From: Candidatus Hadarchaeota archaeon
Lineage (GTDB): Archaea > Hadarchaeota > Hadarchaeia > Hadarchaeales > JAWBSP01
Assembly: GCA_964474885.1 (NCBI GenBank)
Contig: CAYYWO010000004.1
Span: 20,229-84,228 of the forward strand
Length of the DNA stretch: 64,000 bases
Reading direction: 5' to 3'
In this document: positions 7,643-62,860 of the stretch, piece by piece
Layout: each line of letters starts with the position of its first letter
Position numbering within the stretch: position 1 is the stretch's first letter
The notes under the pieces: generated by a model
Databases searched by the model: none
What the model saw: the letters and a program-made list of their open reading frames with translations, nothing else
Told to the model about the DNA's origin: nothing
Made by a program: the position numbers and the translations under genes

Positions 7643-10600
7643 TTGTCGGTGAGAGGGGGGATAGGTAGGTGGGCAACGATATTGATAGACCTACTTATTG
7701 TTCTATCCTATATGCCCCCCGGAGTCCTCGCGGTTCTGAAGACCCCTCAACTCCTTTCACCTGAAAATGACTCTTGGGTGAACGACAACACGCCCCTGTT
7801 CGACTGGACTGATGTCACAGATGCTACAAGCTACCAGATACTCGTTGACAATGACCCTGACTTCACGTCCCCTGAGATCAATGATTTTCCGACCACAAGC
7901 GAGTACGAACCCACGGTTGAGCTGGAGGAGGGCATCTTCTACTACTGGGAGGTCAGGGCTAGGAATGAGGACACGGGGGACTCCTCCAACTGGTCTGAGG
8001 TTTGGTGCTTCAGGGTGGACATAACTCCTCCCCTTGCCCCTTCCCTCATCTCCCCCGACAACTCCGTTACGCTCTGGGTGGATCAGCCCACTTTCAGCTG
8101 GTCGGAGGTCTCCGACCTGAGCGGGATAACTTACAGGCTTGAGATAGATAACGACCCCAACTTCTCCTCCCCCGCGTACTCCATCCTCCTCACAGTCACC
8201 ACCCACCAGCTGGAGAACAAACTGGTCGAGAACTTCTCCCCCTACTACTGGAGGGTGACGGCTGTGGACGGTGCGGGAAACGAAAACTCCTCGGTCGTGT
8301 ACAAGTTCAACCTGAAAGTTCCCCCTGCCTCCTCGGTGGATCCGATCTCCCCGTACTGGGAGAACTCCGCCTTCACCGTCACGATGAGCGCCTCCGACAA
8401 CGACGGGACGGTGGAAAATGTGGAGCTCTGGTACCGGTACTCGAGCGATAACACGAATTGGGGGGACTGGATCCTTTACGACAACGACTCCACTCCCCCC
8501 CACTCCCTAGTTTTTTCACCGCCCTCCGGTGACGGCTACTACGAGTTCTACTCGAGGGCATGGGACGACAGGGGGAACTACGAGAATGCTCCAGCCCAAG
8601 CGGATGCTAGGTGCGGCTACGATACGGTGGCCCCTCCCGCTCCCGAAAACCTCCTACCGGAAAACAACGCCGACTTGGTGACCCCCACCCCGACCCTGGA
8701 GTGGTCCAGGGTGAGCGATATGAGCGGTGTCAAGTATGAGGTCTTGGTAGACAACGACAACCTCTTCGAACCCCCTTGGTCCTACCAAGCGGAAAACCTG
8801 GCAGAGAACACGGTTACAACCTCCCCCCTCGCCCCGGGACTTTACTACTGGAAGGTTCGGGCCAGGGACGGAGCGGGCAACTACGGTGCCTGGTCAGAGG
8901 TATACCAGTTCTATGTCAGAGCCTGGAGGCTTTTAGAGGATTTCAATGCTTGCATCCAAACCCTTTCAGGCTGGAGGCCCACCGAGGCACTTTCCTGCGG
9001 TTTATCCTCTCCCGCGAGCTGGATCAGGATCGAGGCACTAGCGGGGGGCATCGCACCCACCTGGTGGAAGCTGGAAGAAAGCTGCTGCACCACCGAAACA
9101 CTCGCTGGGTGGAAGTTCGTCGGATCCCTGCAGGCTGGCGTGCGGGCTCTCCTGCCTAGTTGGGTCCGCATCGAGCAGTGGAGCAACACAGTCAAATCTG
9201 TTGGACTCTGGAATCTCCTACACAGCATTAGCTCATCTGTCCACAGCATTCCGGTCGCCTGGAGGTATCTCGAGGGTTGCAGCTCGGTAACCAGAACCCT
9301 GCCCCAGCTTTGGTATTTCTTGGGCTGTTACCAAGGGGGCTGTCGGGCTCCAGCAGGGTGGTTCGGGGTAGAGGAGTGGCTGTGCCACTTGAACTTCGCG
9401 GCACATTGGCTCACCCTCACCCAGCTGTCTGCAAGCCCGTCGGCTCCGGCCAGCTGGCGCCCCACCGACACCCTCACCTCCTCCACCCAGACCCGTGGTT
9501 ACTGGCGGTTGCAAGGGGTATGGAGCGCCGGTCTCCCGGCGCCCGTTCCATCTCCCCGGCTCACCTCACCGGAGAATTCTGCCAACCTGAGCACGAATTC
9601 ACCGCTCCTGTGCTGGGAGAACCTGCTCCCCGCCGACAATTATCACCTCCAAGTCGACAACGAGCCCAACTTTGACCAGCCCGAGGTGGATGTCTGGCTC
9701 ACCGAGAACTCCCACCAGCCAACCCTCCCGGACGGGGTCTACTACTGGAGGGTGATGCAGACGAGGAACTCCGCTGCGTCGGAATGGTCCTCAGTCTTTA
9801 GCTTCAGACTCGATACCGTGCCCCCGCCCAAGCCCACCCTCCTCTTCCCAGCGAACCAAAACATAAACGACAACACGCCCCTCTTCCGCTGGACCTCAGT
9901 CCCGGAGAATTCCCTGCCCCTTAGCTACTGGATAGAGATCGACAACGAGCCGGCCTTCAATCCGCCAAAGCTCCTGTCAACTGGCTGGCTCTGGGACAAC
10001 TACTACCAGCTCACCACCGAGCTGTCAGACGGCGAGTACTACTGGAGGGTAAAAGTGAGGGACAATGCGGGGAACTTGGGGGACTGGTCGAGCGAGAACT
10101 TCAGAGTGGACACCGTGAGGCCTTCCGCACCCGCCCCCATTTCACCCACTTCAAACGCCTGGGCATCCGTAACTCCCACCTTCACTTGGCAGAGGGTCAG
10201 TGAGAACTCGTTCCCGGTCAAATACCGCGTGTTCGTGTGCGAGGACTCCGGCTTCGATACAAGCGTCTACAAGGTTTACGTCTCGCCCTGGCTGACGGAA
10301 AACGAGTGGACCTCCCCCGTGCTGGTGGAGGGGCTCGGGGTGGAAGGGAAGCTCTTCTACTGGAGGGTATGCGCCCTAGACAATGCGGGTAACCTCAGCG
10401 AGAATTCTCCCATTCAGGTCTTCCGGACCGACAACGTTCCACCCTCAGTTCCAGACATCCTAGCTCCCGAGAACTGCGCTTACGTCTCGGAGGTCTTCAC
10501 TCTGGCATACACGGCATCGGACGGGGGCTCCGGTGTAGCTAGCTACTGGGTCCAGGTCATGGACGAGAACGGTGAAATAGTTTACGAGAACCAAGAGGCT

Positions 10601-13600
10601 GAGAACAGAGTAGTCTTGCGACTCAGTGAGGGCACCTACCAGTGGAGGGTCAGGGCGAGGGACGCGATCGGGAACCTGAGTGATTGGTCGGCCCTCTACA
10701 CCTTCACGGTCAGCATCTGGAGATTCATCGAGAGCTGGAGCCTAGCGCTGGGTACCCCGAGGAGATGGCACCCCATCGAGAGTTTCTCCGCCTCCTCAGA
10801 AGGCCGGGTCTCCTGGAGGGAACTAGACACTTGGGTAGCATCCGCCCTCTGCCCGGCCGGATGGGTGCTTTCAGAGGGAGTTTCCTCGGCTGTGGGCACA
10901 CGCGCCAGGTACCTCCAGCTGGCCTCATTGACCGCCACCGTTGCGCCGAAGGCGGGATGGGCCTCGGTTGCCACATTCTCGAGCTCTCTTTCATCCCCCG
11001 GCTCCTGGGAGCTCCTCGATAGCAGGAGCGCGGAGTCCTCTGCACCGAGCTCTTGGGTGCGGGTGGAGCAAATGATTTCCTCCCTCGCGTACCCAACCGC
11101 CTGGCGGAAGCTGGAGACCTACTCCTGCATCCTGACAAACATGCCTGGCTGGAGATCAGTGGAGGACATCACGGTCCTCCTCTGGAGCCCCTCCTTCTTC
11201 CGCTTCTTGGACTCGTACTGCGGTAAGCTTGCAGGCCCCGTCCGCTGGTGGGTGCTCTCCGCTCAAACATCCGGAGCACGGACGGTTGTCGGATGGGCAC
11301 CCGTTGAGCTCGTGAGTGCGACGTGCAACACCAAGAGGGCATGGACGCTCGTCGGTAGCTATGCTGCACGGACCTCTGCTCCGGCTGTATGGAAAGGGCT
11401 TGCCAGCCTGAGCGCCGCAATCAGCGCCCCGATTCCCACCCCAACGCTGGTCTCCCCCGCGGACGGGACAAACATAAATCCCAATCTTTCCACCCTGACG
11501 CTCCGGTGGGAAAACTCCCTGTCGGCAGACAACTTCGATCTCCAGATCGACAACAATGCCGATTTCTCCTCTCCTGAGGTCTCCGTGACCGTCACCGGCA
11601 ACAAGTACTCGCCCGCGGATCTCCCGGATAATCTGTACTGGTGGAGGGTCAGGCAGAGGAGGACGGGGAGTGTCTCAGGCTGGTCCGGAGCCTGGAAATT
11701 CAGGGTAGACACCCTTGAGCCCTCGCCTCCCGAACCCCTCAGCCCGATCGAGGGCGAGAACCTGAATGATCCCATCCCCGTGCTTGAGTGGTCAGAACCG
11801 CCCGAAAACTCCCTCCCGCTCACCTACAAGGTGCAGGTCGCCACTTCCAGGTTCTTCGAGTCCGGCACCATCCTCAGGGAAACTTGGGTCTCGGAGCCGA
11901 GGTGGGAGGTCTCCCCCGCCCTGCCGGACAACGTCTACTACTGGAGGGTGCTCGCGAGGGACAACGCGGGGAACAACAGCCTGTATTCCGAAGTCAGGAG
12001 CTTCAGGGTGGACACCCTGAGCCCGCCCGCTCCAACACTGGTAGAACCGGAGAACGACAGCTGGGCACCCGGAGACTTCCGCTTCTCTTGGACCTCCATC
12101 CCCGAAAACTCCCTGCCCGTGGTCTACAACCTCGTCATCGCCTACGACTCGGACTTCAGCGAAATGGTAGAGAACGTGTTCCTCCTAGAAAACACTTACT
12201 CAACCTCCCTAGCAGAGGGTTCCTACTGGTGGAAAGTCAGGGCGAGGGACAATGCTGGTAATTGGAGTGAGTGGTCGGATGCCTGGACCTTCACCCTGGA
12301 CAACACCCCACCCAGCCAGGTCGTCCTGACGAGACCCGAGAACTCCTCCTTCGTCCAGAGCGGACCTGTGACCTTCGGCTGGCAATCCGCCTCGGATGAG
12401 GGTTCGGGTGTGGGGAGGTACTGGATTCAGATCTGGCGCAACGGTTCCTTAGTGTACGAGAACTGCTCGGTGCCCGATAATTCGCTCACGGTGGAGGTGC
12501 CGACCGGGCTGTACTGGTGGAGGGTGAGGGCGGTGGATGTCGCCGGAAATGCGGGCGGGTGGTCGGAGCCATTTGTCTTCACTTCCTCCGACTGGCACCA
12601 GCTCGAATCTTGGCAGCTGCCGCTCGTTGCCCCGGCTAGCTGGAAGGGGGACGAGAGCTGGACCGTCTCCGCTCTCGGAGCTGCCCTCTGGAGAAAGCTC
12701 GAAATCTCGTCGGCTCGCACTAGCTCGCCCGGTCGCTGGGAGCTATCTGACAGTTGGGTCACGTCCATGTGCTCTCCATCGGCTTGGTACAGTCTGGATG
12801 GTAGGAGCATCTCCATCGTCTCCCCCGTTGCCTGGAAGAAGCTCGAAAACTGGATTGGCAGCTGCGCGCTCCCCGCCCTCTGGCACCTAACAGAAATCCT
12901 TCCGGCTTCTCTGAAGACAGTTGCCCACTGGCTGGAACTGGAAGCTCAAACTGGAACCTGCCACGGCTTGCTCGGGAAGTGGAGGCTGATTGATCAACTG
13001 CAGGGCACGGTGCTCGCACCAGCGTTTTGGCTGCCTCTCATGTCCATTCAGAGCCAGGCAGGAGCCGTGTCCAACTGGCAAAAAGTGAGCACGTGGCCGG
13101 CAACGATCGGTGGCCCCATCCACCCACCGGTCCTGATCGCCCCTGAAAACACCAACACCAATGACAACACGCCCACCTTCCAATGGGACAACCTCCAGCC
13201 TGTCGACAACTTCGAGTTCATGCTCGACAACGATGCGGACTTCAGCTCGCCTGAGGTCCACCTGACAACCTCAGACAAGTCCTACACTTCGGGTGAGCTG
13301 CCCGACGGGGTTTACTGGTGGAGAGTCAGATGCTGGAGGACTGGTACCGCCGGTGGCTGGTCGGAGGTCAGATACTTGAGGGTGGACACCGTCAGTCCCT
13401 CCTCCCCCGACCTGCTGAGCCCGTCCGATGGTGAGGACGTCAGCGATTCAACTCCCGTCCTCAGCTGGAGTTCCCCACCTGAGAACTCCCTGCCCCTCAC
13501 CTACAACCTCAAGATCTCAACCTCACCTTACTTCGAGCCCGAGAACATCGTGATTGATGTCTGGGTGGAGGAGAACTCCTACGAGGTATCTGGTCTCGAC

Positions 13601-16159
13601 GAAAATGGGGTTTACTACTGGAAGGTATGTGCCAGGGACAATGCGGGAAACACCGGGCCCTTCACACCCTATGCCTGGAGATTCCACATAGATACTACGC
13701 CGCCCGCCTCACCCTCCCTGCTATCACCGGAAAACCGGGGGTGGGCAAAACCCGAGGCTGAGCTATCCTGGCAGGAGGTACCCGAGAACTCCCCACCCGT
13801 GCTCTACCTGGTCCAGATCTCCGACTTCCCGGACTTCCTGAACACGGTTAGGGAGGTAAAGACTTATGATAATTCGTGGACGGTCTCCCCACCGCTGCCC
13901 GTCAGCTCCTACTACTGGAGAGTAAAGGCGAGGGACAACGCGGGGAACTGGAGCGAGTGGTCGGAGGTTTGGTGGTTCAAAGTAGATAACGAAGCACCCT
14001 CCAAGCCCAGTTTGATCACACCAGAGAACGGGAGTCATGTCCAGGCGAACGCCCCTTTCACCCTCACCTTCACGGCCTCCGACGGAACGGGTTCGGGCGT
14101 GGCCTACTATCAAGTGCAGATCGACAATGACCCAGCCTTCCCCGCCCCCCTCATCGATGTCACAGTGTCCGATAACAGCTGTCAGGTGTCAGGGCTGGCT
14201 TGGGGGACTTACTACTGGCGCGTGAGAGCCATAGACAACGTGAGTAACGTGGGGCCTTGGTCGGATCCATACATCCTTTATTCGAGTGACTGGAAACTCT
14301 GTGATCGGTTCTCAGTGACTGCCCGAGGAAGGGTGTCTTGGGTGCTCAACGAGCGACTGGCTGGTAGGGTGGGTTCCCCCGCCAACTGGTTCTTCTGCGA
14401 ATCGAGATCTGGAGGCATAGAGAACGTCGCTAGAGGATGGTTCTTCTTGGAAAGCTGGGCGAATGAGAACGCAGTTGGGGTGCACTACTGGGCATTGGTC
14501 GAGAGATGGACTAATGCCCTTCGGGCCTATTCCACGTGGAAACACATCGATGTCCGCTCCTCGCGGCTGTTATCACCTCCAACCTACTGGCTCTTCCTTG
14601 AGCGGGTCACGGGAGAACTCGAGGCGACGTTGGGATGGTGGCTGCTTGAGGATTATGCAGGTGCCCTCACCCTTCCGGCGGGCTGGGAGTACTTGGAGAA
14701 CTGGAATTCATCCCTTACAGGAGTGCACTACTGGGTACTGCTGGACGAGTGGCGGAGTCTCGCCTATCACCCCCTCTGGAGAACCCTCGACGTTACTCCT
14801 TGCAGGCTTAACACACGTGCCGAGCACTACCGGCTGGAGGACAGAAGCGGGTACCTGGGTGTGCCTTCCTCCGCGTGGAGGCACGTAGAAACTGAGGCAG
14901 GCGGGTGTAGGTGGAAACCAGCTCACTGGACCCAAGTCGAGAGAATCCGATCCAGGTCGGTACCTGCCTTCTGGAGGCTACTGGAACGCTTCAGATGCGG
15001 ATTCGGCCCGAAAACAGGCTGGCTGTTCATTGAGAAGAAAATCCTCGGGATACGCACTCCCGCCACGAGATTCCACACTCTAGAGAGTCTCCGATCCTCT
15101 CTATTCGCCCCACATATCTGGTCCTTGGTCGACAGAGGCAGAGGAGAGGTCTACACGTTCATCCACTGGAAGGCTTACATCAGAAGTGCGTACATTCCTA
15201 GGAAGGGCTGGTTCGTACTCGAACTCAAAAGTTGCTCTGTCTTCGCTCCGAGATATCTAGAGGAGAGAAAAGAGCGGGAGGTATCGGTAACCCAAGTGGG
15301 GGTGCAGCAGTTCAGTCATTTGAGTGCCAGTGCAGAGAGAGCCTGGTGCAGGGTGCATCCGCCTCACTCGTCTATCTCGGTTGGGGAGTCTAAGTACCTA
15401 CCCCCTTGGCTCCCGTCGCTGCCGGGTGAGCTCTGCAGGTACATTGATGTCAAGCTGAAGAACTGCCAGCTACTGAAACTGAGGATCAGGGTAAGCAAGG
15501 CCTGGCTCAAAAAGATGGACAGGAACACCTTGAGGGTTTGGGGGTACAAGGGTGAGTGGGTCTCCCTGCCCTTCGAACTCGCAGCGGAGGACGAGCTTTA
15601 CCTGTACCTGGAGTTCGAGTCCCAAGGTTTCAGCTGCTTCGCGGTTACTGCGAGAAGAAAACCCTTCTTCCCGTGGTGGGCTGTTCTGTGGGTATGGCTG
15701 GGGATCGTGGGAACCCTGGGATATCTGATGCTCCAGCCCTTCATCGGGGAGATACGTCTGCGCAGGCTACAGCAAAAATACGAGGAGTCCCTGAAAGGTG
15801 CTACCTATCGGAAGATAGCGAGCAGGCTCAGATCGATCGGCAGGAAGCTCAGCAAGGAGGATCGAATAGCTCTAAGAGAAATCGCTGAGGAGCTCAGGCT
15901 CCTCCCGCCTCCCACACTGGTCCCCGTGGAAGAAAAGCTCACCAAACCGGAGCTCATTGCCGTTGAGACTCTAGAGAAGTTCATCAGGGAGAGGAGAAAA
16001 AGAATACCCCTCCGCCGCGAGAAGCTGGAGGAACTGAAGAAACTTCAGAGAGAGATGCTGAGACGGCCAAAAGAAAGGCGCCGATCCAAGCGGAAACGGA
16101 CCACTAGGAAATATGCCAGGAGCGAGCAGAAGAAGCCCGCTAAGAGATCTAAGAAATAA
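7643..16159 (+). CDS. giant cell-surface protein: FN3/Ig-like modules, Trp-rich 16-aa repeats, PGF-pre-PGF-like domain, C-terminal TM
   Basis: 2838-aa ORF; N-terminal hydrophobic signal; 16 modules, most with YYWRVRA.D.AGN...WS; four W-repeat blocks; ...EDELYLYLEFESQGFSCFAV then TM and basic tail; exact start (TTG 7643 or GTG 7649) uncertain. Confidence 0.9.
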   Translation: MSVRGGIGRWATILIDLLIVLSYMPPGVLAVLKTPQLLSPENDSWVNDNTPLFDWTDVTDATSYQILVDNDPDFTSPEINDFPTTSEYEPTVELEEGIFYYWEVRARNEDTGDSSNWSEVWCFRVDITPPLAPSLISPDNSVTLWVDQPTFSWSEVSDLSGITYRLEIDNDPNFSSPAYSILLTVTTHQLENKLVENFSPYYWRVTAVDGAGNENSSVVYKFNLKVPPASSVDPISPYWENSAFTVTMSASDNDGTVENVELWYRYSSDNTNWGDWILYDNDSTPPHSLVFSPPSGDGYYEFYSRAWDDRGNYENAPAQADARCGYDTVAPPAPENLLPENNADLVTPTPTLEWSRVSDMSGVKYEVLVDNDNLFEPPWSYQAENLAENTVTTSPLAPGLYYWKVRARDGAGNYGAWSEVYQFYVRAWRLLEDFNACIQTLSGWRPTEALSCGLSSPASWIRIEALAGGIAPTWWKLEESCCTTETLAGWKFVGSLQAGVRALLPSWVRIEQWSNTVKSVGLWNLLHSISSSVHSIPVAWRYLEGCSSVTRTLPQLWYFLGCYQGGCRAPAGWFGVEEWLCHLNFAAHWLTLTQLSASPSAPASWRPTDTLTSSTQTRGYWRLQGVWSAGLPAPVPSPRLTSPENSANLSTNSPLLCWENLLPADNYHLQVDNEPNFDQPEVDVWLTENSHQPTLPDGVYYWRVMQTRNSAASEWSSVFSFRLDTVPPPKPTLLFPANQNINDNTPLFRWTSVPENSLPLSYWIEIDNEPAFNPPKLLSTGWLWDNYYQLTTELSDGEYYWRVKVRDNAGNLGDWSSENFRVDTVRPSAPAPISPTSNAWASVTPTFTWQRVSENSFPVKYRVFVCEDSGFDTSVYKVYVSPWLTENEWTSPVLVEGLGVEGKLFYWRVCALDNAGNLSENSPIQVFRTDNVPPSVPDILAPENCAYVSEVFTLAYTASDGGSGVASYWVQVMDENGEIVYENQEAENRVVLRLSEGTYQWRVRARDAIGNLSDWSALYTFTVSIWRFIESWSLALGTPRRWHPIESFSASSEGRVSWRELDTWVASALCPAGWVLSEGVSSAVGTRARYLQLASLTATVAPKAGWASVATFSSSLSSPGSWELLDSRSAESSAPSSWVRVEQMISSLAYPTAWRKLETYSCILTNMPGWRSVEDITVLLWSPSFFRFLDSYCGKLAGPVRWWVLSAQTSGARTVVGWAPVELVSATCNTKRAWTLVGSYAARTSAPAVWKGLASLSAAISAPIPTPTLVSPADGTNINPNLSTLTLRWENSLSADNFDLQIDNNADFSSPEVSVTVTGNKYSPADLPDNLYWWRVRQRRTGSVSGWSGAWKFRVDTLEPSPPEPLSPIEGENLNDPIPVLEWSEPPENSLPLTYKVQVATSRFFESGTILRETWVSEPRWEVSPALPDNVYYWRVLARDNAGNNSLYSEVRSFRVDTLSPPAPTLVEPENDSWAPGDFRFSWTSIPENSLPVVYNLVIAYDSDFSEMVENVFLLENTYSTSLAEGSYWWKVRARDNAGNWSEWSDAWTFTLDNTPPSQVVLTRPENSSFVQSGPVTFGWQSASDEGSGVGRYWIQIWRNGSLVYENCSVPDNSLTVEVPTGLYWWRVRAVDVAGNAGGWSEPFVFTSSDWHQLESWQLPLVAPASWKGDESWTVSALGAALWRKLEISSARTSSPGRWELSDSWVTSMCSPSAWYSLDGRSISIVSPVAWKKLENWIGSCALPALWHLTEILPASLKTVAHWLELEAQTGTCHGLLGKWRLIDQLQGTVLAPAFWLPLMSIQSQAGAVSNWQKVSTWPATIGGPIHPPVLIAPENTNTNDNTPTFQWDNLQPVDNFEFMLDNDADFSSPEVHLTTSDKSYTSGELPDGVYWWRVRCWRTGTAGGWSEVRYLRVDTVSPSSPDLLSPSDGEDVSDSTPVLSWSSPPENSLPLTYNLKISTSPYFEPENIVIDVWVEENSYEVSGLDENGVYYWKVCARDNAGNTGPFTPYAWRFHIDTTPPASPSLLSPENRGWAKPEAELSWQEVPENSPPVLYLVQISDFPDFLNTVREVKTYDNSWTVSPPLPVSSYYWRVKARDNAGNWSEWSEVWWFKVDNEAPSKPSLITPENGSHVQANAPFTLTFTASDGTGSGVAYYQVQIDNDPAFPAPLIDVTVSDNSCQVSGLAWGTYYWRVRAIDNVSNVGPWSDPYILYSSDWKLCDRFSVTARGRVSWVLNERLAGRVGSPANWFFCESRSGGIENVARGWFFLESWANENAVGVHYWALVERWTNALRAYSTWKHIDVRSSRLLSPPTYWLFLERVTGELEATLGWWLLEDYAGALTLPAGWEYLENWNSSLTGVHYWVLLDEWRSLAYHPLWRTLDVTPCRLNTRAEHYRLEDRSGYLGVPSSAWRHVETEAGGCRWKPAHWTQVERIRSRSVPAFWRLLERFRCGFGPKTGWLFIEKKILGIRTPATRFHTLESLRSSLFAPHIWSLVDRGRGEVYTFIHWKAYIRSAYIPRKGWFVLELKSCSVFAPRYLEERKEREVSVTQVGVQQFSHLSASAERAWCRVHPPHSSISVGESKYLPPWLPSLPGELCRYIDVKLKNCQLLKLRIRVSKAWLKKMDRNTLRVWGYKGEWVSLPFELAAEDELYLYLEFESQGFSCFAVTARRKPFFPWWAVLWVWLGIVGTLGYLMLQPFIGEIRLRRLQQKYEESLKGATYRKIASRLRSIGRKLSKEDRIALREIAEELRLLPPPTLVPVEEKLTKPELIAVETLEKFIRERRKRIPLRREKLEELKKLQREMLRRPKERRRSKRKRTTRKYARSEQKKPAKRSKK

Positions 16160-32317: not shown

Positions 32318-34045
32318 GTGAGGGTGGCGATCCCTGCAGGACTGCTTGTAGGTCTCTTCCTCGTCCTGTGTGCATCCGGGACGATCCTAGCGAGAAGCGA
32401 TTTCTACTACAGGTCCATCGTGGGGCACTTCGAGATAAACGCAGACAAAACGATTTCCACAACCATCCAGTTTGAGCTCGTAAATCCTAGTTACACCCAG
32501 TGGCTGACTGGCATAACATGGACGGTGCCCTGTGGGATCTCCGATGTCAGAGCCTGGGACTCTCAAGGAGATTTGCGCGTCTCGACGGAAAACCTAGGCA
32601 CGAGCACCAAGATCTCGGTGAAGTTCAGATCAGCGGTCTACGGGAACATGTCCCTCCGTTTCTGGCTGTCCTACAAGATGATGGGAGTGGTGAAGGGAGG
32701 GAAGTTCGAGTACAGGTGCAACCTTGGTGCCATTAGTGCGCAAAGGGAGATCCAAGATTACGAGGTTTGGGTGAAGGGGCCCTCCAGTACTGAGCTGTTC
32801 CTAGCGAGCCCAGAGGCCGAACTCGAGGATGGCTGGCTAAAGCTCCGGACTTCACTTCAGCAGGGGGAGGCATGCGAGGGGCTGACCGCAGTCTACTTCT
32901 CGACTCCTGCCTTCTACACCGTAACCCTAACCGAAAAGATCCAGAACCAGAGTTCAAAGGAAACAACTGTGATGTTCCACTTTCTCCTCTTCAACAACTC
33001 CCAAGGACAATTCGCCGCTCTCTACAATTGCTCGCACCCTATCAGGTCACTCTGGATCGACGAGGAGAACAACTGGTACGCCGACGTGAAGCTGGACCTA
33101 CCACCCTACAGCCAGACGGTGGTACAGCTCAAGTGCTTCTGGTTCACAGATATATACAAGCCAGAGGTCGATACGAGCAATGCTGGATCCATCACTCAAA
33201 TAAGCGATGAGCTCGCACCCTACCTGAAGGAGCAGGAGTGGTGGGAGGTTAGCTCCCCCCAGATCCAAAGCAAGGCCTGGGAGGTCTCGGCCGGGGAGAC
33301 CAACGTATACAGGCTGGCGAAGCGGATCGTTCGGGCTGTCGGGGATTTGTTGACCTACCAGCAGACCCCCGAGAGACAGGGGGCACTCCAAACCCTGCTC
33401 CGGGGGTATGGAGACTGCGATGGATACAGTGACCTCACCATCGCCCTAGCCCGTGCGTCTGGGCTCCCCGCCAGGCTCTGCTTCGGCTGGGCCTGTCAGG
33501 AAAGCGAGTACAAGGGGCACGCCTGGGTGGAGTTTTACTCCCCTACCCTAGGCTGGCTGCCCTCCGACCCCACCTGGGCCGAGGAATGGGGGAACTACTT
33601 GTTCTGTTCCGACCCCTCCCACCTGCTGAGGGGAATAAGAGGGCTGAGCTCCTCGGACTCTTCCGTCAGAATGGAGTACTTCGGCTCGGCGCCTACAATT
33701 CAGGAGGAAGTGGAAATAACGCCCACAGACAATTCTACCATCTTCGGCCTCGCCCTCCAAGCTTGCTCCCTGTACCTCGGCGTCTGCGAAAACCTGGTAG
33801 GTAGCCAGGATCCCGTCCTACAGGCGGCCAGGAGCCACTACCAGAATGCGCTGGCCCTGGGCTCTCTGCCCGAGGCACTCGACTGCATCCAATGCTGCGG
33901 CACGATCATCTCGCTGCACGGTGAGGAATCCGAGCTCAGCCCAAGATTCCTTCTCCAACTCCCCATTGAGATCAGCCTAGAGCAGCTACTGGTAATCCTC
34001 CTGATCATTCTTGTGATCGTCACGGTCGTCGCGGTAAGCAGATAA
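32318..34045 (+). CDS. membrane-anchored extracellular transglutaminase-like protein
   Basis: Signal peptide; GDCDGYS, HAWVE, W...DPT (Cys-His-Asp triad); C-terminal TM. Confidence 0.88.
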   Translation: MRVAIPAGLLVGLFLVLCASGTILARSDFYYRSIVGHFEINADKTISTTIQFELVNPSYTQWLTGITWTVPCGISDVRAWDSQGDLRVSTENLGTSTKISVKFRSAVYGNMSLRFWLSYKMMGVVKGGKFEYRCNLGAISAQREIQDYEVWVKGPSSTELFLASPEAELEDGWLKLRTSLQQGEACEGLTAVYFSTPAFYTVTLTEKIQNQSSKETTVMFHFLLFNNSQGQFAALYNCSHPIRSLWIDEENNWYADVKLDLPPYSQTVVQLKCFWFTDIYKPEVDTSNAGSITQISDELAPYLKEQEWWEVSSPQIQSKAWEVSAGETNVYRLAKRIVRAVGDLLTYQQTPERQGALQTLLRGYGDCDGYSDLTIALARASGLPARLCFGWACQESEYKGHAWVEFYSPTLGWLPSDPTWAEEWGNYLFCSDPSHLLRGIRGLSSSDSSVRMEYFGSAPTIQEEVEITPTDNSTIFGLALQACSLYLGVCENLVGSQDPVLQAARSHYQNALALGSLPEALDCIQCCGTIISLHGEESELSPRFLLQLPIEISLEQLLVILLIILVIVTVVAVSR

Positions 34046-61192: not shown

Positions 61193-62860
61193 ATGAGTCC
61201 GGCATACCGGAGGCTCTTCTTTGTTCTCTCAGGCTTCGTGGCTTTTGCTTTACTGGTACCAGTGTGCTTCCGAGCAATTGCGTTCCACATACCTCCTGAA
61301 AACTGCCGATATGACTTTAGCAGTTCCCACGGCTTCTACACCGATCCCACGTGGAGAACCTCCATCGAGAACGGAAATCCGGTGCTCAGAGGAGAAAACG
61401 AAGGGTTCGCCTTTTTTCCGAAAGAAATCCTAAAGGAAAATAGACGAACCAAAGATCTCTTACCTACCCCTACCGAGCTTGCTGGACTGAAGGTGGGGAT
61501 TAAAGTTGAGAGGGGGTTCACCTGCGTCTCATGGATAGGCAAGAATCAAAAGCTCTCCTTAGTTTTTCATCCGGCTAGGCTGGAGATAGAGCAGTGGTCT
61601 GGCGATGAACTCGTCGGATGGCACTCTTATCCCATAGATTTTCCGCTCGGCCAGTGGCATAACTTGCAGTTGTCAGTTCAAGACTTGAATCTTTACATAA
61701 AACTGGATGACAACCAAACGATAGAAATAGAAAACGCGTTCTGGGGCCAAAAAGTGAGTTTCGAGGCATGCCCTTCCGATGTGGGCACGGTGGTCCTGAT
61801 AGACAACTTCGAGGTCTGCTTTGGTAGGCCCTCTATTATTCAATCCCTTCTTGCCGATCTGGTGATTGTCGGGCGAATGCTCGCTTACATAGGCCTTTTC
61901 CTCCTGTTGGTCTTTTGGTTGCTCAGAATCAAACCGAGGTATGGCTTCTGGGCCGCTCTCGCTCTGATCACTGCCCTGCTCTCCGAGCGCCCGACGCTTT
62001 TCTTCAGCAGGCCCCTGGATTTGGGCTTTATTTTGGGGTACCTCTTCTACTTCTTCTACAGCTTCATAACATACGACTTGGTTTGGAGTAGCAACAGAAC
62101 TGACCTAGGAACTCTTCTGCTTGTCGGAGCTCTCGTAGGGTGTTTCCTAAGCTTCGGCAGGTGGGGCCTGTCGCCGGGTTTAGTTATGAGATTCTCCGTT
62201 GTCTCGATCACTTTTCCGTTGGTCATGCTCGACTCTTTTACTCCAAATCCCGAAGTGAGAGTTCCTCCTTGGGTCAACACTCTGCTCGGAGGCCGGCGGT
62301 GGCGGTGGACCCTAGGACTGATCATGCTTGCCCTCTTGTACTCGGCATACTGTGCGATTGGTCTGATCGTTTCTAACCTCTGCTTTCACCTCTCGTTGGT
62401 TATTATGGCTGGAGAACTTGTCCTAGTCTACCTACTGGCCTTGCTCATCATTTCGAAGGGTATGAATTTGAGGGAGTTCTTACCCACCAAGCGTGAACGA
62501 AAAGTCATTCTCCCCGCTCTAGGAGTGGCTTATCTCTTCTCAGTAGCATACCTTTTGCGCGTGACACTGGCTGCATCTGCCTCGCCTTCTGAGCTCATGC
62601 TTATAAATTTCGGCCCCTTTGTACTCATGTTTTCCTTACTGCTTGTGTGCACACGCTCAAGATTACGAAAGCGAGTCCGTATGCGCGAAAAACTAAGACC
62701 TCGCTCACCGATAATTTGGCTTCCCTTGCTACTGTTGTTCGCATCTCTTGTGTCGCTCGTTCCTCCCTTGGTGATACTAATCCCAATCGAGATGTTCTTG
62801 GAACAGGTGGGGGGCATCGGGCTAATAATATGGCTATTGTTGGATACGCGGAGATTGTAG
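61193..62860 (+). CDS. multi-pass membrane protein with N-terminal extracellular beta-sandwich (ConA/LamG-like) domain
   Basis: Signal/TM, then GQWHNLQLSV...LYIKLDD...IDNF pattern, then many TM helices. Confidence 0.7.
   Translation: MSPAYRRLFFVLSGFVAFALLVPVCFRAIAFHIPPENCRYDFSSSHGFYTDPTWRTSIENGNPVLRGENEGFAFFPKEILKENRRTKDLLPTPTELAGLKVGIKVERGFTCVSWIGKNQKLSLVFHPARLEIEQWSGDELVGWHSYPIDFPLGQWHNLQLSVQDLNLYIKLDDNQTIEIENAFWGQKVSFEACPSDVGTVVLIDNFEVCFGRPSIIQSLLADLVIVGRMLAYIGLFLLLVFWLLRIKPRYGFWAALALITALLSERPTLFFSRPLDLGFILGYLFYFFYSFITYDLVWSSNRTDLGTLLLVGALVGCFLSFGRWGLSPGLVMRFSVVSITFPLVMLDSFTPNPEVRVPPWVNTLLGGRRWRWTLGLIMLALLYSAYCAIGLIVSNLCFHLSLVIMAGELVLVYLLALLIISKGMNLREFLPTKRERKVILPALGVAYLFSVAYLLRVTLAASASPSELMLINFGPFVLMFSLLLVCTRSRLRKRVRMREKLRPRSPIIWLPLLLLFASLVSLVPPLVILIPIEMFLEQVGGIGLIIWLLLDTRRL

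Follow-up and report, generated by a model that had tools for sequence, protein, structure and literature searches.

The window analysed here is a 64,000-nucleotide stretch of contig CAYYWO010000004.1 (positions 20,229 to 84,228 of the forward strand; assembly GCA_964474885.1) from a Candidatus Hadarchaeota archaeon of the order Hadarchaeales. It encodes a giant surface protein in which most asparagine residues directly follow an aspartate or a glutamate, a pairing referred to below as [DE]N, or as D-N and E-N for the separate dipeptides. An N-terminal signal/anchor helix and a C-terminal transmembrane (TM) helix followed by a basic tail are present in this protein, and its repeated module was matched by the Pfam models Ig_Rha78A_N (PF25788, 131 bits), Big_13 (PF19077, 99.7 bits) and fn3 (PF00041, 35.1 bits). 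The gene, the segment in which the bias was originally flagged and the modules (aa, amino acids) are as follows.

7643..16159, plus strand: giant surface protein, 2838 aa, with 15 immunoglobulin (Ig)/FN3-like modules alternating with Trp-periodic blocks
7733..8923, plus strand: flagged segment, aa 31-427 of the giant open reading frame (ORF), with 20 of 31 Asn in [DE]N (11 E-N, 9 D-N)
7742..8026, plus strand: module copy 1, aa 34-128, a predicted seven-strand beta-sandwich
8036..8314, plus strand: module copy 2, aa 132-224, matched by the module profile
8315..8638, plus strand: inter-module stretch, aa 225-332, with no module-profile match and 6 of 8 Asn in [DE]N
8639..8917, plus strand: module copy 3, aa 333-425, matched by the module profile
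9551..14278, plus strand: span of twelve further module copies
9551-9817, 9833-10114, 10127-10435 and 10451-10711, plus strand: module copies
11438-11713, 11729-12016, 12029-12307 and 12326-12583, plus strand: module copies
13127-13390, 13403-13699, 13709-13990 and 14006-14278, plus strand: module copies

The original prediction, a hand count made from the sequence of the window, had placed 20 of the 31 Asn in the first 427 aa of this protein in [DE]N, mostly outside canonical N-x-S/T sequons. Both statements were reproduced exactly. The 20 Asn residues concerned are 42, 49, 70, 140, 170, 192, 197, 215, 241, 253, 259, 270, 281, 315, 336, 341, 371, 373, 385 and 389, against 4.9 expected from composition, and when the segment was shuffled 20,000 times, this number was never attained (mean, 4.93; maximum, 14). 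Six N-x-S/T sequons are present in the segment and just 4 of the 20 [DE]N fall within one. Over the whole ORF, 80 of 138 Asn were in [DE]N (15.6 expected), and the cytoplasmic tail of 140 aa contained no Asn at all. A caveat in the prediction, that repeated modules partly inflate the count, was also borne out, as 70 of the 111 Asn inside the 15 modules were [DE]N, but the excess persisted in the non-module part of the ectodomain (10 of 27 Asn; 2.2 expected). The blocks between the module arrays (8918-15254) had a W-x-x-[LV]-[ED] motif every ~17 to 21 residues, few Asn and no Pfam match.

Three further proteins of the window had been counted in the prediction, and in each case the recount gave the same fraction.

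61280..61858, plus strand: large loop (aa 30-222) following the first TM helix in the polytopic protein encoded at 61193-62860, with no Pfam family
32318..34045, plus strand: transglutaminase-like protein with N- and C-terminal hydrophobic helices
59989..60993, minus strand: GAPDH, a cytoplasmic control

In the outer domain of the 61193 protein, 7 of 11 Asn were in [DE]N (5 E-N and 2 D-N), as compared to none of 6 elsewhere in this protein. The transglutaminase-like protein, which had been described as a weaker case, had 4 of 17 (3 of them E-N), and GAPDH had 1 of 13. The recounts confirmed that the bias first noticed in the window is real.

The source genome (G000) comprises 1.18 Mb in 60 contigs and is 92% complete; 1153 genes were called with a home-made codon-score ORF picker. 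Proteins were sorted by our own Kyte-Doolittle rule, under which an N-terminal hydrophobic segment defines a protein as secreted. The 64 module-free predicted secreted proteins contained 169 E-N against 59.7 expected (z = 14.1), and a maximum of 85 was reached in 1000 within-protein shuffles of this set. Among dipeptides expected 15 times or more, E-N was the strongest outlier and D-G was second (z = 5.6). The 855 proteins lacking a hydrophobic segment had E-N at 1.06-fold the expected level. When proteins with at least 5 Asn were considered individually, 31 of 42 secreted proteins exceeded their E-N expectation, compared to 191 of 456 cytoplasmic proteins. The excess persisted when a second gene caller was used. 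A lack of enrichment in non-homologous secreted proteins, which would have spoken against the original prediction, was not observed: the 64 proteins represented 59 phmmer families, and all 225 of the 225 seven-residue contexts of the sites were unique. The E-N-rich proteins had unrelated folds and included an MMPL transporter, an ApbE fusion, the tungstate-binding protein WtpA, an S49 peptidase, a transglutaminase-like protein and pilin-anchored adhesins with LamG and CBM/PA14 domains. In the polytopic proteins AglB (the archaeal oligosaccharyltransferase), MMPL and ApbE, the E-N sites fell in large loops known to face outward.

The bias depended on the order of the two residues, with the reverse dipeptide N-E at ~0.7-fold the expected level. 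In secreted proteins, D-D was depleted (0.56-fold) and N-N was not enriched. Local acidic or Asn-rich composition was rejected as a cause because N-E, D-D and N-N were not enriched, and a motif at the DNA level was rejected because all four combinations of GAA or GAG with AAC or AAT occur.

Part of the G000 bin differed from the rest. A group of 27 short contigs (138 kb, ~12% of the bin, including C13, C16-C18, C24, C27-C29 and C34) had a GC content of 33 to 44% and a tetranucleotide correlation of <0.3 with contigs C1-C5; by these measures, they look mis-binned or foreign. The few E-N-poor secreted proteins of G000 sit on these contigs. On the core contigs, secreted proteins had 155 E-N for 45.7 expected (3.39-fold) and N-x-S/T at 1.19-fold, while the 7 secreted proteins of the foreign-looking contigs (dockerin, TSP3, NosD and beta-propeller types) had 8 E-N for 13.2 expected and 56 N-x-S/T for 22.1 expected (2.53-fold). 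These contigs thus provide a negative control from within the bin. An apparent excess of canonical sequons in G000 as a whole (1.31-fold) was discounted, as it came largely from the foreign contigs.

A proteome-wide comparison of secreted and cytoplasmic proteins, which had been suggested with the original prediction, was made across the order on a pooled set from which module proteins and foreign contigs had been removed. There were six Hadarchaeales samples, namely, five genomes (G000; G002, of the same genus; and G003, G011 and G018, of other families) and 51 further loci. The outgroups were G031 (369 kb), the sole non-Hadarchaeales genome of the phylum sampled, and 80 metagenome loci with a canonical AglB (956 kb). 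In 164 secreted Hadarchaeales proteins, E-N was found 479 times against 149.8 expected (3.20-fold) and D-N 201 times against 104.3 expected (1.93-fold), which amounts to roughly 330 excess E-N sites. The corresponding values were 1.07- and 0.72-fold for 1959 cytoplasmic Hadarchaeales proteins and 1.08- and 0.81-fold for 69 secreted outgroup proteins. Each Hadarchaeales sample showed the secreted, module-free E-N excess (3.39-fold for the G000 core, 4.54 for G002, 3.28 for G003, 2.35 for G011, 2.40 for G018 and 3.05 for the 51 loci), and cytoplasmic E-N lay between 1.03- and 1.17-fold in all of them; secreted E-N was at 1.03-fold in G031 and at 1.23-fold in the 80 loci with a WWDYG-type AglB. 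When set against the cytoplasmic baseline, secreted D-N showed nearly the same rise as E-N, in agreement with the prediction's wording as [DE]-N. In cytoplasmic proteins of Hadarchaeales and outgroups alike, D-N was scarce (0.64- to 0.78-fold) and N-P was in surplus (~1.5-fold). This looks like a general property of proteins, and it makes the D-N excess and the proline depletion (see below) of secreted proteins more striking.

Individual protein families showed the same restriction. The WtpA query had 6 E-N, whereas the maximum in 119 homologues from other archaea was 5, with an overall level of 1.24-fold. For MMPL, 36 E-N were found for 7.2 expected in 5 close homologues (one of them named as Hadarchaeales), as opposed to 82 for 67.9 expected in 56 distant ones. 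The C-terminal domains of AglB had 320 E-N for 78.3 expected in Hadarchaeales, against 61 for 60.0 and 159 for 108.4 in canonical sets.

The repeated module of the giant protein provided a further comparison. A jackhmmer search seeded with aa 34-128 detected 88 copies of this ~95-aa module in 8 G000 proteins, of which 15 belong to the giant protein and 44 to a protein of 7554 aa encoded on a different contig. This larger protein (G000:C10:15331-37995, outside the window) had 315 of its 490 Asn in [DE]N. An AlphaFold2 model of module copy 1 (predicted local distance difference test score, 97.5) contained seven strands arranged as a sandwich, and its E-N (module residues 8-9) and two D-N (15-16 and 36-37) were predicted to lie outside the strands. 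By Pfam match and predicted fold, the repeat is of the same type as the Ig_Rha78A_N/Big_13/FN3-like modules of other giant surface proteins. The density of [DE]N was ~5 per 95-aa module, with recurring positions in P-E-N, N-D-N-T-P, V-D-N-D, t-E-N and D-N-A-G-N. Within columns of the module alignment, Asn went together with a preceding Asp or Glu (Mantel-Haenszel odds ratio of 17.9 over 40 columns, a value that overstates independence because the copies are related), and the control residues Q, S, T, G, K, D and H gave odds ratios of at most 1.1. The module proteins had a low Lys content of 2.3%.

A profile of the module matched 101,703 representative proteins at an E value of ≤0.001. Among the best 150 of these matches, 17 proteins had [DE]N at 40% or more of their Asn, 123 had <20% and 10 lay between. 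The 287 Hadarchaeales-type modules of the 17 high proteins had E-N at 4.86-fold and D-N at 3.91-fold the expected level. A shared bias in FN3 homologues of unrelated taxa had been named as evidence that would count against the original prediction; the 2393 modules of the 123 low proteins had E-N at 0.93-fold and D-N at 1.00-fold. The high-group consensus s-P-e-N-g, l-q-i-D-n-D-p-d and A-r-D-n-A-G-N corresponded to s-P-a-n-G-a, l-Q-v-s-t-d-s and A-x-D-x-a-G-n in the low group, with Ser, Thr or Ala at the columns where Hadarchaeales modules have [DE]N. Asn made up 9.1% of residues in Hadarchaeales modules, with 63% of it in [DE]N, but 5.2% and 10%, respectively, in modules of other taxa. Ten clusters were checked per group, and those named by organism were Hadesarchaea/Hadarchaeales in the high group (n = 2) and Chloroflexota and Lindowbacteria in the low group (n = 2). 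Overall, these comparisons indicated that the E-N bias is lineage specific, being found throughout the order but not in the sister genome, the 80 outgroup loci or four protein families outside the order.

The E-N sites themselves had distinct properties. In module-free secreted proteins they accounted for 479 of 1951 Asn sites, or about a quarter. Proline at +1 was depleted, although not absolutely excluded, occurring at 10 of 479 secreted E-N (0.42-fold of background) compared to 86 of 1346 cytoplasmic E-N (P = 1e-4) and 73 of 1271 other secreted Asn (P = 9e-4); the outgroup secreted proteins had 7 of 82. Serine or threonine at +2 was found at 53 of 479 secreted E-N (0.111; background, 0.123) and at 205 of 1271 other secreted Asn (0.161, or 1.31-fold; P = 0.008 versus E-N sites). 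Glutamate at -2 was without effect in secreted proteins (150 E-x-N observed for 145.9 expected; 1.03-fold), and an acidic signal at -2 of the kind known from PglB was rejected on this basis. In their Asn content, location and avoidance of proline, E-N sites resemble oligosaccharyltransferase acceptors; the Ser/Thr determinant is not used at them, and a canonical signal exists alongside.

To our knowledge, N-x-S/T is regarded as an almost universal rule for N-glycosylation in each domain of life. The WWDYG motif is used to recognize oligosaccharyltransferases and to account for this rule. Inspection of AglB motifs in the genome, also suggested with the original prediction, revealed an anomaly. 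The G000 AglB gene (G000:C1:98397-100637, outside the window) was found by means of an AglB from the same genus (54% identity) and was missed by the Pfam STT3 model PF02516 at an E value of 0.001, both in a six-frame search of the genome and by hmmscan. Automatic annotation would probably record this genome as lacking an oligosaccharyltransferase. The G000 sequence V-V-A-V-E-W-S-Y-G-H aligned with S-W-W-D-Y-G-Y of eukaryotic STT3. In all 25 of the 25 Hadarchaeales AglBs that span the motif, WWDYG was replaced by x-W-S-[YFH]-G, the first tryptophan being gone and x being E (12), Q (9), P (2), R (1) or H (1). The first tryptophan was likewise missing, and W-D changed to W-S, in 54 unique Hadarchaeales AglB C-terminal domains. 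A scan of 185,579 species genomes with the variant-motif pattern returned 54 relatives, whose titles were of the Hadarchaeota type except for two "uncultured archaeon" entries, one "Methanobacteriota archaeon" and one "Hodarchaeaceae." WWDxG was not found in any G000 open frame of >105 aa, and a second, canonical AglB was not found in the assembled 92% of this genome. The AglB of the sister genome G031 had W-W-D-Y-G, as did 120 of 120 of its database homologues, so that a single phylum contains two AglB types that differ greatly. Named homologues of the G031 protein (L047, on G031:C10) were mostly from Nitrososphaerota and Bathyarchaeia or were eukaryotic STT3.

Despite the altered motif, the homology of the Hadarchaeales AglB to STT3 is firm on the basis of profile comparisons. 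A profile of 16 Hadarchaeales sequences matched human STT3A in the PDB with an E value of 2.6e-23 (positions 83 to 485), and hhalign against 25 canonical AglBs gave a probability of 99.93% over 502 columns. Residues D40, D154 and E294 were invariant in the 16 sequences and E156 was the majority residue; in the hhalign alignment, the canonical AglBs have the Asp of DPFF, the FDxE motif and the Glu of SVAEH at these catalytic positions. The catalytic acids and the layout of a TM part followed by an outer C-terminal domain are thus shared with canonical AglB/STT3 (PF02516; PDB 6s7o, 5gmy and 7e9s), but WWDYG was replaced in 25 of 25 sequences and no DK/MI motif could be aligned. The profile alignment stopped before the canonical GGGDESK, and no conserved Lys or Ile was found after D-Y-I-V-F. 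In the accessible parts of two studies, the WWD of WWDYG and the DK/MI motif are described as forming the pocket for the +2 Ser/Thr (PMC3703281, PMC8342417). Variant DK motifs are stated in the accessible part of one of these to be identifiable only from structure (PMC3703281), and the accessible part of a 2024 review mentions variation of WWDYG only at the fourth position (PMC11407970). The order-wide change of WWDYG to [EQRPH]-W-S-[YFH]-G and the lack of a recognizable DK/MI motif were the outcome of the suggested inspection.

The coincidence of an acidic bias at -1 and a lost AglB motif points to an undescribed glycosylation signal. Under the mechanism that we propose, an Asn directly after Glu, or less often Asp, would be a functional two-residue unit in Hadarchaeales, and selection for it would act on the parts of proteins that lie outside the cytoplasmic membrane. 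Its most likely function would be that of an acceptor signal for N-glycosylation by the divergent AglB, which would have kept its catalytic acids while its Ser/Thr-reading pocket was remodelled, and recognition would have moved, at least in part, from the +2 Ser/Thr to the -1 carboxylate. The sequence statistics, their confinement to a compartment and a lineage and the change of motif are direct results. We infer the modification of Asn, the role of AglB as its enzyme and the way in which the -1 Glu is read, and we consider the case for an N-glycosylation acceptor signal read by a remodelled AglB to be evenly balanced.

Known systems differ from this arrangement. Campylobacter PglB (D/E-X-N-X-S/T) likewise uses an acid on the N-terminal side of the acceptor Asn, and according to the accessible part of one study its acidic residue forms a salt bridge with R331 (PMC5421464). 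In PglB, however, the acid is at -2, +2 Ser/Thr is required and WWDYG is kept, whereas in Hadarchaeales the acid is at -1, +2 Ser/Thr is at background and WWDYG is gone. The single-subunit STT3A of Trypanosoma brucei (TbSTT3A) favors acidic neighbors without strictly requiring them; in the accessible part of the same study, this preference was determined for the -2 position of N-x-S/T peptides, the enzyme having a canonical pocket, and a proteome-wide -1 signature is not described there (PMC5421464). The acidic determinants covered in that source therefore sit at -2, being obligatory in PglB and facultative in TbSTT3A, together with a +2 Ser/Thr (PMC5421464). A literature search, with subscription journals outside its coverage, found nothing on glycosylation in Hadarchaeota, a WSYG-type motif or an acidic sequon at -1. 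It is possible, but somewhat doubtful, that [E>D]-N constitutes a third kind of sequon that dispenses with Ser/Thr and is read by an AglB with a dismantled WWD/DK pocket and an intact catalytic center.

Several observations weigh against glycosylation at [ED]-N by AglB. Neither a glycan nor any other modification has been seen. The canonical +2 Ser/Thr signal persisted at non-[DE]N Asn of secreted proteins (1.31-fold; 1.40-fold in outgroups), so that [DE]-N would supplement the canonical signal and not simply replace it. The residue that WWD touches is at +2 and not at -1; the motif change alone thus does not explain the preference for Glu at -1, and another AglB residue would have to read the carboxylate. 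Candidate partners are K149, R370, R373, H473, R481, R539 and R540, which did not vary among the 16 sequences, and the nearly invariant R155. The strength of the E-N bias was alike whether the first residue of the variant motif was E or Q (4.26 versus 4.15). The link between variant AglB and E-N bias may also be a coincidence, because clade and sister differ by a single evolutionary event. Few glycosylation genes were detected in G000: no glycosyltransferase cluster surrounded aglB, no Glycos_transf_4 gene (AglH/Alg7 type) was found in the 92%-complete genome and there were only two GT2 genes (C8:37125-37589 and C2:65134-65484). Judging from this gene content, any N-glycan of this organism would probably be short and built on dolichol monophosphate. 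A positive-inside topology test on polytopic G000 proteins did not tell the two sides apart (E-N level, 2.15 inside and 2.53 outside), a comparison based on crude TM calls and with too few sites in the other genomes. In secreted orthologues of G000 and G002, E-N was kept at 18 of 26 sites and other Asn at 38 of 68 (P = 0.35); the difference from cytoplasmic E-N (50 of 112) was weak (P = 0.03). In addition, the secreted class was assigned by our own hydrophobicity rule with no trained predictor behind it, and the outgroup sample contained no euryarchaeal proteomes, as pHV4 of Haloferax volcanii (100 kb) had just 2 predicted secreted proteins and was left out. The original suggestion of a lineage-specific [DE]-N modification signal is partly supported: the restriction of the enrichment to secreted proteins and to the lineage was upheld, and the AglB anomaly adds to it; the persistent canonical signal and the modification not being observed detract from it.

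The best-surviving alternative, although an unlikely one, is that another extracytoplasmic process directed at Asn or Glu-Asn, in which AglB has no part, is responsible, be it a modification, a cross-link or a recognition element in surface assembly, and that the clade carries the changed AglB motif as an independent trait. A bias limited to secreted proteins and to this lineage is compatible with any extracytoplasmic machinery that only the order has. The scarcity of glycosylation genes in G000 is also in line with such a process, as is the reading of +2 rather than -1 by WWD in the accessible part of the structural work (PMC3703281), and the +2 Ser/Thr signal at other Asn means that AglB may remain an ordinary N-x-S/T enzyme. 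However, a candidate enzyme for this process was not identified, and proline avoidance at +1, like the elevated Asn content, would be expected of an oligosaccharyltransferase site. The density of sites, at about a quarter of Asn and ~5 per module, argues against a proteolytic or sorting site, and the Lys content of 2.3% in module proteins argues against Lys-Asn isopeptide bonds.

An improbable alternative is that [DE]N is a structural dipeptide, forming acid-amide turns or Ca2+ sites that stiffen tandem beta-sandwiches as in cadherins and bacterial Ig-like adhesins. The module [DE]N sites are predicted to occupy loop positions beside strand ends, D-G is the second most enriched secreted dipeptide (z = 5.6) and the module sequence N-D-N-T-P-x-F resembles D-x-N-D-N-x-P-x-F, which we take to be the cadherin linker motif. 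Against this, the 2393 homologous modules from 123 proteins of other taxa had no excess (E-N, 0.93-fold; D-N, 1.00-fold), nor did secreted proteins of the sister genome and the 80 outgroup loci, and the excess extended to the non-Ig folds of WtpA, MMPL, the S49 peptidase, ApbE and AglB. Ca sites favor Asp; in the secreted proteins, D-D was depleted (0.56-fold) and Glu was favored at least as much as Asp. Ca-binding turns, which had been offered in the original prediction as a second explanation, are not supported as a general cause, given the unrelated folds and these two features. Finally, an artifact of repeats, local composition, gene calling or class assignment is very improbable: the gene and class rules were simple and home-made, repeats inflate the giant protein and ~12% of the bin is foreign, but the excess survived removal of modules and foreign contigs, shuffling, a second gene caller and per-protein counting (31 of 42), the same pipeline gave ~1.0 for cytoplasmic and outgroup secreted sets, and N-E was not enriched. 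The statistical finding of an E-N bias is itself robust.

If [E>D]-N is indeed an acceptor signal for AglB, the Hadarchaeales enzyme would be the first oligosaccharyltransferase to take its specificity from the residue immediately preceding Asn, and the surface proteome would have been rewritten to suit it. This would mean that the acceptor specificity of an oligosaccharyltransferase can be re-invented, that prediction of glycosylation sites from the sequon is wrong for Hadarchaeales and that an enzyme with orthogonal specificity may be available for glyco-engineering. Even if the modification proves to be a different one, a dipeptide signature this strong (z > 14 in a single genome) and specific to one compartment is a pointer to unfamiliar surface biochemistry in an uncultivated group.

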